A DNA stretch of 61,710 nt, taken from contig JBGSLH010000004.1 of NCBI GenBank assembly GCA_041740795.1, positions 1 to 61,710 of the forward strand. Direction: 5' to 3'. Source of the DNA: Minisyncoccia bacterium. GTDB lineage: Bacteria; Patescibacteriota; Minisyncoccia; Phycocordibacterales; JAACPR01. Position 1 is the first letter of the stretch. The number at the start of each line of letters is the position of its first letter. The notes beneath the pieces were generated by a model, which was not told the DNA's origin, did no database searches, and saw nothing but the letters and a program-made list of their open reading frames with translations. This document shows positions 4,735 to 7,280 of this stretch, piece after piece. The translations under genes and the position numbers were made by a program.

Positions 4735-5733
4735 TTATCTAAAGATATTCGGCTCCGCTTCCAAAACAACATCGAAAGATTCCTGCACCAACTTTGTAAT
4801 GCGTGTGATTACCTGCAAGAGGTCTTGAAACGACGCATCTCCTGTATTTATCAAAATCAACTTATTCGCTTCGTTAAAAATCACCGTATCATTTTGTGTC
4901 AAAAGATAATCCACATGTTCGATCAACCAGCCGGCATAGAGTTTGATCTGATCGTCTTCTGTTTTAAAAAAGGGAATGTTCGGATAATGCACGAGGAGTT
5001 TCTCCAAATGTTTTTGATTGATAATTGGATTTTTAAAAAACGAACCACAGTTGGGAAAGATTTTGTAATCGGGAATCTTCTTGTTCCGTATTTCGATAAT
5101 TGCATTACGTATCTCGACAAGAGTCGGATGAGATTTTGTAAAATATTCCTGTACTGCTTTGTATGCAGGGATATCAGGAAGGGTAGTCTGAAGTCTGATC
5201 CTGATATTCAAGATGACATACTGTCTCGGGTTTTGCTTAAAAATACTGTCTCGATATGCGAACAAACAATCTCTCTTTGAGAAGATCTCATACGTATTTT
5301 TTTCTCTATCAAACACTTCCGCTTCTACAAAAACATTTGCGAGTTCTGCTCCGTATGCTCCGATATTTTGAACCGGTGCTGCGCCGACTGTTCCAGGTAT
5401 TCCTGACAGTGCTTCGATGCCAGAAAGGTTTTTAGCTACCGTCCATGCCACCAAATCCTCCCATGATTCGCCGCCCTGGGCAGTTACGATAACTGTGTGG
5501 TCCGATTCCTGTTGGACAGTGATTCCTTTGAGTCTCATTAGTCCGATGATGTAGTGGTTGGTACTCTCGCCAAAGATTGAATTCGATCCTTCTCCGATGA
5601 TAATAAGTGGTTTATCCACATCTCTCGAATATGAGTTTATTTTTTCTATATCCGATTTTTCATTAATTTCAAATACTCTGTGGGCAATGCCACCTATTTT
5701 GAAGGTGGAGTATACTCTCAAATCAAGATTCAT
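4735..5733 (-). CDS. murB: UDP-N-acetylenolpyruvoylglucosamine reductase
   Basis: STFKIGG, IGEGSNSIF, GIPGTVGAAPVQNIGAYG, NCGSFFKNP, EPN; start re-assigned to MNLDL. Confidence 0.96.
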   Translation of the reverse strand: MNLDLRVYSTFKIGGIAHRVFEINEKSDIEKINSYSRDVDKPLIIIGEGSNSIFGESTNHYIIGLMRLKGITVQQESDHTVIVTAQGGESWEDLVAWTVAKNLSGIEALSGIPGTVGAAPVQNIGAYGAELANVFVEAEVFDREKNTYEIFSKRDCLFAYRDSIFKQNPRQYVILNIRIRLQTTLPDIPAYKAVQEYFTKSHPTLVEIRNAIIEIRNKKIPDYKIFPNCGSFFKNPIINQKHLEKLLVHYPNIPFFKTEDDQIKLYAGWLIEHVDYLLTQNDTVIFNEANKLILINTGDASFQDLLQVITRITKLVQESFDVVLEAEPNIFR

Positions 5734-5736
5734 ACG

Positions 5737-5754
5737 TATATCATATGTGATATA
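5737..5754. promoter_or_regulatory. Palindrome overlapping divergent murB/murA -10 elements (candidate operator)
   Basis: TATATCA-TATG-TGATATA in a 29-bp intergenic gap. Confidence 0.55.
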
Positions 5755-5762
5755 TTGGGTAT

Positions 5763-7280
5763 ATGTCAAAAAAGAATTCAGCATCAGATTCCTTGCAGAA
5801 AATCGGAACACTTATCAAGTCACTCAGGTCACAGAAAGGTCTTACTCAAGGTGATTTTGCAAAACTACTCAAGACATCACAGAGCGCCGTTGCACGGATA
5901 GAATCCGGAAATCAGAATCTTACAACGAACGAAATTCTCAAGATTGGAGAAGTTCTTCATCGTAAAATAATCTCACTCGACAAGTCGATCGATTTTAAAA
6001 TCATCGGAGGAAAAAAACTCAGCGGTTCAATCGAGACGAATACGTCCAAGAACGGCGCGATGGGATTGCTCTGCGCATCTCTACTCAACAAAGGAACTAC
6101 AATTCTCAGACGCGTGCCACGTATCGAAGAAGTGAATCGAGTACTTGAAGTGTTCGATAGTATCGGTGTGCAGTACAAATGGGAAGGGACGACCCTGACT
6201 ATCAAACCTCCCAAAAAATTCAAGATGAGCAACTTGCAGGCGGAGTCTGCTAGTAAAATCCGTTCTGCACTTATGATGATTGGTTCGCTTATACATCATG
6301 TCGAATCTTTTGATCTTCCTCATGCAGGAGGATGCAAGATGGGAGAGCGAACCATCGCAGCTCACCGCTACGGACTCGAAGAGCTTGGAATCAAGATTGA
6401 TACGAAGTCTGATTTTTATAAGATATCAAAAAAGAAACTGCACAGGGCGGACATTGTCATGTACGAAGCAGGTGACACAGCTGTGATCAATATTCTTCTT
6501 GCTGCAGCGGGGATTCCTCAAGAAACCAACATCTCATTTGCTTCGTCGAATTACCAGGTCCAGGAGGTGTGCTTTTTTCTCCAGAAGATGGGAGTGATTG
6601 TTGAAGGAATCGGAACACATCGGCTCAAGGTAAAAGGAATAAAAGATATTAATATGACAATTGAATTTTCATGTGCAGAAGATCCGATCGAGTCCATGAT
6701 GTTTATTGCTGCCGCGATTGTTACGCAGTCCGAATTGACCGTCAAAAAATGCCCAATCGATTTTCTTGCTCTCGAACTCCTCAAACTAGAGAAAATGGGA
6801 CTCAAATATAAAAAGAGCAAAGTATACAAATCTGAGAATGAGCACACTGACCTTGTTGATGTTGTCGTGTATCCATCGAAGCTAGTCGCGCCTGCAGACA
6901 AGATCGCTGCCATGCCGTATCCAGGAATCAACACGGACAACCTTCCGTTTTTTGTTCCGATAGCAACACAAGCAGAAGGGCAGACTCTTATACATGACTG
7001 GATGTGGGAAAATCGCGCGATCTATTTTACGGAACTTAATAGGCTCGGTGCCAACATTAAGCTTGCAGATCCTCATCGTGTGTTCGTAATAGGAAAGACT
7101 CCACTTAAGGCCGCGCAGATCGTGTGTCCGCCTGCGCTTCGTCCTGCGATGATCATCTTGATCGCGATGCTTGCAGCACCGGGCGAATCTATCTTGAGAA
7201 ACGTATATGCGATTGAAAGAGGATATGAGGATATTGCAAATCGTCTGAATTCCATCGGGGCGGATATCAAGATTGTGTAA
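5763..7280 (+). CDS. murA: XRE-HTH fused UDP-N-acetylglucosamine 1-carboxyvinyltransferase
   Basis: N-terminal LRSQKGLTQGDFAKLLKTSQSAVARIESG HTH; SKNG, LPHAGGCKMGER (catalytic Cys), PYPGINTD, RGYE. Confidence 0.95.
   Translation: MSKKNSASDSLQKIGTLIKSLRSQKGLTQGDFAKLLKTSQSAVARIESGNQNLTTNEILKIGEVLHRKIISLDKSIDFKIIGGKKLSGSIETNTSKNGAMGLLCASLLNKGTTILRRVPRIEEVNRVLEVFDSIGVQYKWEGTTLTIKPPKKFKMSNLQAESASKIRSALMMIGSLIHHVESFDLPHAGGCKMGERTIAAHRYGLEELGIKIDTKSDFYKISKKKLHRADIVMYEAGDTAVINILLAAAGIPQETNISFASSNYQVQEVCFFLQKMGVIVEGIGTHRLKVKGIKDINMTIEFSCAEDPIESMMFIAAAIVTQSELTVKKCPIDFLALELLKLEKMGLKYKKSKVYKSENEHTDLVDVVVYPSKLVAPADKIAAMPYPGINTDNLPFFVPIATQAEGQTLIHDWMWENRAIYFTELNRLGANIKLADPHRVFVIGKTPLKAAQIVCPPALRPAMIILIAMLAAPGESILRNVYAIERGYEDIANRLNSIGADIKIV

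Follow-up and report, generated by a model that had tools for sequence, protein, structure and literature searches.

A MurA enzyme with a fused XRE-type helix-turn-helix domain and a conserved palindrome at its own promoter in Patescibacteria

Results

Genes and proteins of the murB-murA locus

In the window, i.e. the whole stretch of 61,710 nucleotides analysed from a Minisyncoccia bacterium, two divergent genes for peptidoglycan precursor synthesis are separated by only 29 bp between their start codons (5734-5762). The leaderless murB (4735-5733, minus strand) starts with the ATG at 5733-5731 (MNLDLRVYSTFKIGG...) and encodes a UDP-N-acetylmuramate dehydrogenase of 332 aa that exceeds the cut-off of NCBIfam model PRK00046 (333 vs. 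277 bits) and contains the Pfam domains FAD_binding_4 and MurB_C. The opposite gene (5763-7280, plus strand, ATG at 5763) encodes a 505 aa protein in which a DNA-binding domain is fused to MurA. A genome search identified this HTH-murA fusion gene as the sole murA of the genome, and it is flanked by murB and a gene for pyruvate kinase.

The N-terminal part of the fusion (5763-5987, plus strand) consists of an XRE-type HTH domain and a 10-residue linker, as delineated by Pfam HTH_3 and an AlphaFold2 model. Residues 18-66 match HTH_3 with 36.1 bits (cut-off 23), which suffices for assignment to the XRE / Cro-C1 domains, and the segment was modelled as a four-helix bundle (helices at residues 2-24, 29-36, 40-47, and 55-65; recognition region TSQSAVARIE). 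Among solved structures, controller proteins and HipB come closest to it, while an identity as HipB / Y4mF-type type II antitoxin was rejected (TIGR03070 with 44.3 bits vs. a cut-off of 71.65, and no adjacent toxin gene). The recognition helix TSQSAVAR is almost unchanged among fused homologues.

Profile and structure matches assign residues 76-505 (5988-7277, plus strand) to the catalytic body of MurA. PF00275 covers residues 82-495 (E-value 1e-44) and membership in the MurA sequence family is met with NCBIfam PRK09369 (328.1 vs. 297 bits), while the stricter equivalog TIGR01072 was not reached (319 vs. 392.7 bits). The fold is that of MurA, with TM-scores of 0.85-0.91 for the modelled body against solved MurA structures (Foldseek). 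Cys191, encoded at 6333-6335, occupies the position of the catalytic cysteine in alignments with solved MurA and is unchanged in 100 fused homologues, among which many further active-site residues are invariant as well. The AlphaFold2 model, calculated from a 100-sequence alignment and for the monomer only, has a pLDDT of 89, with low confidence in the loop 191-193, as expected of a mobile loop. An N-terminal XRE domain on a MurA that retains its catalytic Cys, as proposed in a preliminary description of this DNA, is thus well founded. Enzymatic activity of HTH-MurA is inferred, because it is the only MurA of the genome and adjoins murB.

A palindrome overlapping two divergent promoters

The spacer contains an 18-bp inverted repeat, the putative operator TATATCA-TATG-TGATATA (5737-5754). 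Its arms (5737-5743 and 5748-5754) are 100% complementary and 4 nt apart, the local spacer TATG departs from perfect symmetry at one position, and the conserved unit is the full 18-mer with the family consensus TATATCA-YATR-TGATATA. The centres of the half-sites are separated by 11 bp, which fits a dimer on a single face of the DNA.

Both start codons are preceded by promoters that run into this repeat. The murB promoter (minus strand) matches 11 of 12 consensus positions in a promoter scan and consists of a -35 box TTGACA (5764-5769) located on murA codons 1-3, a spacing of 18 nt, and a -10 box TATGAT (5740-5745) within the palindrome, 6 nt from the murB ATG. The murA promoter (plus strand) has a weak -35-like hexamer TTCATA (5729-5734) on the murB start codon and, after 16 nt, the box TATATT (5751-5756), which is preceded by TG and thereby forms an extended -10 element TG-A-TATATT (5748-5756; TGATATAAT in relatives) that overlaps the right half-site and ends 6 nt from the murA ATG. 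Genome-wide, -10 boxes peak exactly 6 nt before ATG and there is no Shine-Dalgarno signal, i.e. leaderless transcripts are the rule. Relative to the leaderless murA start, the palindrome extends from -26 to -9, and it covers the equivalent part of the overlapping, opposed murB promoter. Sequence and promoter scan hence agree with the arrangement first described, a palindrome over both -10 boxes, each 6 nt from its ATG, in a 29-bp gap.

The palindrome is single-copy in the 652,950-base genome when up to one mismatch is allowed. With up to two mismatches, one match in the window compares with 0.45 expected, so that a lone site is weak evidence and the case rests on comparative data. A search for further regulon members in the genome yielded six sites with two mismatches, nearly all intragenic, none at a promoter and none with the consensus spacer; glmS was not found in this genome, which is ~80% complete.

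Distribution of the fusion and conservation of the palindrome

The HTH-MurA fusion arose once and was detected in 44 of 401 sampled Patescibacteria genomes (~11%); the species genomes that carry it number at least 561. A literature search found no publication on HTH-MurA or XRE-MurA. The palindrome follows the fusion closely: it lies directly upstream with at most one mismatch in 105 of the 108 fused loci with upstream DNA to inspect (90 exact, 15 with one mismatch), while two loci have two mismatches, one of them with the symmetric change TATCTCA..TGAGATA, and one has no site. In contrast, none of 22 unfused close MurA homologues carries it, even with up to three mismatches allowed. Conservation upstream of HTH-murA homologues, on which the preliminary description had made its proposal depend, is therefore confirmed. 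Across 99 distinct fused loci, the 18-mer core holds 0.9-2.0 bits per position (half-sites 1.66-2.0, spacer 0.94-1.78), while the flanks are unconserved (≤0.6 bits); the spacer, although outside the search pattern, is fixed at a length of 4 and conserved as YATR.

This pattern extends to other classes of the phylum: 26 of 29 fused genes from them have the site upstream (0-2 mismatches), and their helix is conserved as TSQSA(V/I)xR(I/M)E. The site is absent at the fused locus L064 and the divergent loci L233 and L234. As the recognition helix and the operator are both nearly invariant, it could not be demonstrated that they co-vary; among the altered helices, it is that of the most divergent head (L234, TSPSTIERIE) alone that comes without the site. 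The palindrome is also missing in two secondary losses of the HTH, but these are not independent evidence because the HTH-coding 5' end adjoins the palindrome and one deletion could remove both. Moreover, part of the conservation is that of a promoter, since the right half-site is the extended -10. A role of the palindrome at the RNA level was rejected because most loci place it ahead of the point where the leaderless transcript is inferred to begin.

In three genera, a second copy of the palindrome is found at an unlinked locus that encodes a small membrane protein. The palindrome precedes this gene in all seven genomes with the fusion, but in none of 19 genomes that have the gene together with an unfused MurA or none. 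This difference is inflated by shared ancestry, given that three genera of one family are compared with other families. The genome studied here yielded no homologue of this membrane protein, and neither the leader nor the ORF of this second target has an Rfam or Pfam match.

Discussion

A putative enzyme-repressor of cell-wall synthesis

The domain architecture, the palindrome with its position, and the specificity of the site for fusion genomes were established computationally. An enzyme and a DNA-binding domain in one polypeptide, with a site at genes of the same pathway (murA and murB), match one characteristic of enzyme-repressors, and a palindrome at the own promoter matches one of XRE / Cro-C1 regulators. 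We consider it likely that HTH-MurA is a bifunctional enzyme that, as a dimer, binds the palindrome and thereby represses both murA and murB, with physical binding, dimeric state and repression all being inferred. MurA, the target of fosfomycin, carries out the first committed step in peptidoglycan synthesis. In the proposed mechanism, the C-terminal 430 residues would serve as the only MurA of the cell, while the N-terminal XRE-type HTH would bind TATATCA-YATR-TGATATA. Bound protein would cover both -10 boxes, because the palindrome spans the same region of both promoters, and would exclude RNA polymerase; this position of the site is the sole basis for inferring repression. murA and murB, i.e. 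the first two committed steps of precursor synthesis, would be repressed together, and the circuit would amount to negative autoregulation by MurA itself. MurA enzymes are usually described as monomers, which counts against a dimer. According to a 2025 paper, on the other hand, XRE regulators often control their own expression and contact palindromic sites as dimers (PMC12565409). The core of the preliminary description, in which the HTH of MurA acts on both genes through the palindrome, gains support from a site that tracks the fusion even to the unlinked second target. Co-control of murB holds only in part: the shared 29-31 bp murB-murA spacer supports it in this genus, to which this spacer is confined, while other genera have murB at a distance of 40-130 bp or not next to murA at all.

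The preliminary description had conceded that the symmetry might merely reflect two back-to-back -10 boxes, in which case no dedicated protein would be needed and the palindrome would be no more than the opposed extended -10 elements (ATTATATCA / TGATATAAT) of divergent leaderless genes. Each half does read as such an element, leaderless promoters are the norm in this genome, and the left flank supplies the rest of a TAnnnT box more often at loci with divergent murB than at those without (59% vs. 27%). However, the core is kept in both groups, and the full palindrome persists at the 50 of 108 fused loci that have no divergent murB, some of which have a co-directional gene or tRNA upstream instead. 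Two promoters would not account for a spacer of fixed length conserved as YATR, nor for a genome with 13 copies of TGATATAAT and 271 of TATAAT but a single palindrome. The palindrome is also absent from all 22 unfused loci and from the divergent murB-murA pair of an unfused relative, where the spacer measures ~40 nt. On these sequence comparisons, the palindrome appears not to be a by-product of two promoters, and an origin from promoter symmetry alone is largely refuted and barely tenable.

A protein bound to the palindrome might also act as an activator or ligand-dependent switch, e.g. by reshaping the 16-bp and 18-bp promoter spacers. The palindrome spans spacer and -10 box of both promoters, the murA promoter combines a weak -35 with a short 16-nt spacing, and no computation fixes the sign of regulation. 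We nevertheless regard either role as unlikely, since the proximal half-site falls on the -10 and extended -10 at almost every locus, the classic position for steric exclusion, and the murB promoter is so close to consensus that activation should be unneeded. Even less plausible is that the palindrome serves a separately encoded regulator as operator and that the HTH of MurA has another function, e.g. in nucleoid tethering or protein contact. Small stand-alone XRE proteins do exist in these genomes, albeit as weak matches, and the link between HTH and site lacks a binding assay, but the site follows the fused HTH across classes and is missing with unfused MurA, at the unlinked second target as well. 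Further, the nearly invariant TSQSAVAR helix pairs with a nearly invariant site, and the loci examined are not accompanied by any other conserved regulator gene.

Beyond repression by HTH-MurA, a one-protein feedback loop is conceivable, in which the level of cell-wall precursors directly sets the transcription of murA, murB, and further targets. This remains tentative, more doubtful than probable, and is inference only, as is any modulation by UDP-GlcNAc, PEP, or UDP-MurNAc. Binding of UDP-GlcNAc/PEP or UDP-MurNAc might drive the MurA body from its open to its closed form, a change that the short, fixed linker could pass on to the HTH, setting the affinity or dimerisation of the latter; in other lineages, targets may include the small-membrane-protein gene with its structured leader. 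UDP-MurNAc is present in solved structures of MurA from at least five species (3su9, 3swd, 3swe, 3swg, 8d84, 6q03), which shows that the enzyme body can bind the product of the MurB step and makes this product a plausible signal.

If MurA does read its own promoter, this would add transcription as a new level at which MurA is controlled, and would be a very compact circuit in genomes of 0.6-1 Mb with few regulators. Should the feedback loop also hold, it might be a main regulator of the cell wall where transcription factors are very few. HTH-MurA would also offer a natural system for the coupling of an enzyme's conformational change to DNA binding, and in vitro testing is possible without culturing because operator and protein are well defined.

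Comparison with known systems

BirA of Escherichia coli acts both as biotin protein ligase and as repressor of the bio operon, and dimerises on biotinyl-AMP, following a co-repressor logic. Its operator bioO is a single palindromic site between two divergent, overlapping promoters, just like the murB-murA site. Another enzyme-repressor with a fused DNA-binding domain is archaeal RbkR (PMC5397151). BirA, PutA, NadR, and RbkR resemble HTH-MurA in joining a working pathway enzyme to an N-terminal DNA-binding domain, with an operator over promoters of the same pathway. However, HTH-MurA is not homologous to this group: its HTH is of the XRE type instead of a winged helix or RHH, its enzyme is MurA, and its pathway is peptidoglycan precursor synthesis.

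On the side of the DNA-binding domain, the 434 and P22 repressors, SinR, HipB, and the controller C proteins of restriction-modification systems likewise possess an HTH and a palindrome at their own promoter with half-sites about one helical turn apart. While XRE / Cro-C1 repressors are small and dedicated proteins or antitoxins, the HTH of the fusion is attached by a fixed linker of ~10 residues to an essential enzyme of 430 residues. On the side of the enzyme, control of MurA by UDP-MurNAc in ‘dormant’ MurA-UNAM-PEP complexes throttles the first committed step according to the state of the pathway, similar to what is proposed for HTH-MurA, and MurA of Firmicutes is subject to regulated proteolysis. 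These known controls hit the protein, whereas control by HTH-MurA would be transcriptional and exerted by MurA itself.

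Divergent murB and HTH-murA genes with fully overlapping promoters

The HTH-murA ORF (505 aa; start ATG at 5763, plus strand) combines an XRE-type HTH_3 domain (Pfam; residues 18-66, 36.1 bits against 23) with a complete MurA (PF00275, residues 82-495; NCBIfam PRK09369, 328 bits against 297), an architecture established computationally, and encodes the sole MurA found in this genome (652,950 bases, roughly 80% complete). The divergent murB (332 aa; start ATG at 5733-5731, minus strand) was assigned by NCBIfam PRK00046 (333 bits against a cut-off of 277). The 29-bp spacer between both genes holds the palindrome TATATCA-TATG-TGATATA (5737-5754), whose arms are perfectly complementary. 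A consensus scan placed the murB promoter on the minus strand (-35 TTGACA at 5769-5764, 18 nt, -10 TATGAT at 5745-5740; 11 of 12 positions) and the murA promoter on the plus strand (-35-like TTCATA at 5729-5734, 16 nt, -10 TATATT at 5751-5756, preceded by TG), the two overlapping completely (5729-5769) and each leaving 6 nt between -10 and ATG. The geometry claimed in the preliminary description, i.e. a 29-bp spacer with a palindrome over both -10 boxes and 6 nt to either ATG, is thus correct in all details. In the murA promoter the palindrome spans positions of about -26 to -9, and it covers the corresponding stretch of the murB promoter. Moreover, the murB -35 is encoded by murA codons 1-3 (ATG TCA AA) and the murA -35-like hexamer sits over the murB start codon, so that coding and promoter constraints are superimposed on both N-termini.

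Over 673 long ORFs of the whole genome, TAnnnT hexamers show a sharp peak at exactly 6 nt in front of ATG (18% vs a background of ~3.5%), and at no position do Shine-Dalgarno-like words reach 1%. Both patterns support leaderless genes in this organism, and murA and murB are therefore ordinary leaderless genes here.

The palindrome is conserved with the fusion

Within the genome, the palindrome is unique at up to one mismatch, while there are 13 copies of TGATATAAT and 271 of TATAAT; the six matches with two mismatches are almost all intragenic, none lying at a promoter or having the consensus spacer. Fused genes were gathered from the family (33 genomes), class (301 genomes) and phylum (401 genomes) and from a scan for the peptide TSQSAVAR[MI] across 185,579 species genomes, which yielded at least 561 confirmed relatives and 80 loci. 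Exact TATATCA-N4-TGATATA was present in 90 of the 108 fused loci having upstream DNA, with one mismatch in 15 and two in 2 (one being the symmetric variant TATCTCA..TGAGATA), and a single locus had no site. What had been read as a candidate operator is hence conserved upstream of HTH-murA homologues (105/108 at 0-1 mismatch), in contrast to 0/22 unfused MurA genes (50-67% identical) at up to 3 mismatches, a specificity again derived by computation from relatives whose counts are not independent observations. Information over 99 distinct loci amounts to 0.9-2.0 bits at each position of the 18-mer and at most 0.6 bits in the flanks. Since the spacer, which lay outside the search pattern, is always 4 nt long and conserved as YATR, the consensus is a perfect 18-mer with the halves TATATCATA and TATGATATA.

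A second, unlinked site

Seven genomes of three other genera of the family (G001, G002, G003, G014, G021, G022 and G024; loci L157-L163 and L180-L186) carry a second palindrome copy, five exact and two with one mismatch, 155-323 nt upstream of a gene for a ~65-aa small membrane protein (MKIFRALGLGL...MPEVFEAFE), its gene-proximal half again being TGATATAAT. The window's own genome lacks this locus, and a glmS gene was not found in its incomplete assembly either. All seven family genomes with the gene have the fusion (7/7) and the palindrome (7/7), whereas the palindrome is missing in the 19 class-level genomes that have the gene and an unfused or absent MurA (0/19; best 3-4 mismatches). Because murA and this locus are unlinked, the site tracks the DNA-binding head rather than neighbouring sequence, with the caveat that the seven genomes all belong to one family and the contrast partly reflects shared ancestry.

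The leader between this second operator and the gene is conserved and apparently structured, with AAGGAAAGTTCATTRA as a box and with GAGGGAGG and CTTCTCTC as long-range pairing partners, and its length of 155-323 nt is an oddity in a leaderless genome. Neither leader nor gene had matches in Rfam or Pfam; the leader may represent a small RNA or a riboswitch-like element not yet known.

Evolution and distribution of the fusion

In a tree inferred from 139 MurA bodies by maximum likelihood, all 101 fused proteins formed one clade (SH-aLRT 98), with a wholly unfused clade of 14 as sister. Two unfused pairs, L038/L041 (sharing a genus with a fused genome) and L035/L037, are nested within the fused clade (support 96-100) and are, judged by this placement, secondary losses of the HTH head. 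The palindrome is absent at both pairs; however, the head coding sequence lies ~10 bp from it, so a single deletion could remove both and we do not count these losses as independent evidence. The fusion was found in 44 of 401 sampled phylum genomes, and the same site (0-2 mismatches) at 26 of the 29 loci fetched from this sample, two of these loci being from the order to which the window belongs. Fused proteins at phylum level retain the recognition region TSQSA(V/I)xR(I/M)E, and the most diverged head (L234, TSPSTIERIE) has no such site.

Several loci showed peculiarities of their own. A G+C-rich terminator-like hairpin adjoins the left half-site in L213 and L216, from another class of the phylum, where this half is degenerate alike (TTTGTCA) and the right half and spacer are intact. 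In family genome G007, murA is deleted: at locus L153 (G007:C23:2169-5186), murB is succeeded by a one-mismatch palindrome (TGAAATA) and a remnant of 15 codons, MSKKTKDILRLLNQS*, after which comes the pyruvate kinase gene located downstream of murA in the window; the genome had no MurA match at all. MurA matches were missing in 9 of 33 family genomes (G007, G010, G011, G015, G017, G018, G019, G027 and G032), of which seven are at least 90% complete, and the exact palindrome in all nine; part of the family may not need cell-wall precursor synthesis or may have lost it. Unfused loci L047, L050, L051, L053 and L054, all of one family, share a conserved CATATGAT(T/C)G(T/C)TGATAT(A/T) downstream of murA at a roughly fixed distance (~1,780-1,860 nt past the murA alignment start; variant TATATGAT.. 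in L051), which probably belongs to the coding part of the following gene.

Predicted structure and proposed regulation

The AlphaFold2 model (monomer, 100-sequence alignment; pLDDT 89, pTM 0.82) has a head of four helices (2-24, 29-36, 40-47, 55-65), a linker of constant length (10 residues) in which S75 and D77 are invariant, and a body that superposes on solved MurA structures (TM-score ~0.9). Cys191 aligns with the catalytic cysteine and, like many active-site residues, is invariant in 100 fused homologues. Among solved structures, the head is closest to restriction-modification controller proteins and HipB, which bind palindromes as dimers. UDP-MurNAc, the MurB product, is present in several solved MurA structures together with a PEP adduct on the catalytic Cys; a ligand-bound body state that could serve as signal therefore exists, and ligand control of HTH-MurA by this state is our inference.

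Without binding or expression data, we consider it probable that HTH-MurA is a dimeric repressor of murA and murB acting via the palindrome. In the two half-sites, which are 11 bp apart from centre to centre, helix 40-47 of each chain would enter successive major grooves, and the inferred dimer, once bound, would cover both -10 boxes and block access of RNA polymerase to both genes simultaneously. The first two committed steps would thereby be under negative autoregulation.

The symmetry might also arise with no protein involved, simply from two back-to-back -10 boxes as the preliminary description had allowed, and a -10-like box is indeed completed by bases left of the core in 59% of loci with divergent murB vs 27% without. 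However, 50 of the 108 fused loci have no divergent murB within 1.5 kb (upstream lies instead, e.g., a co-directional gene in L040 or a tRNA in L031), the core is kept in loci of both kinds, and an unfused relative whose divergent murB and murA are ~40 nt apart lacks the palindrome. Two -10 boxes are thus not sufficient, and we find a protein-free palindrome very hard to credit. Its use by another protein seems quite improbable with a site that follows the head even at an unlinked locus. The same HTH-MurA binding might act as activation or a switch, as the sign of regulation is inferred from the position over both -10 boxes; we regard this as unlikely and favour repression by HTH-MurA.

Literature searches returned no account of MurA fused to an HTH or of MurA controlling its own transcription. 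In the proposed role, HTH-MurA would group functionally with BirA, PutA, NadR and archaeal RbkR (PMC5397151), although it is homologous to none of them. It resembles BirA/bioO in that the enzyme has a DNA-binding domain at its N-terminus and that a single palindrome lies between overlapping, divergent promoters of genes in the enzyme's pathway.
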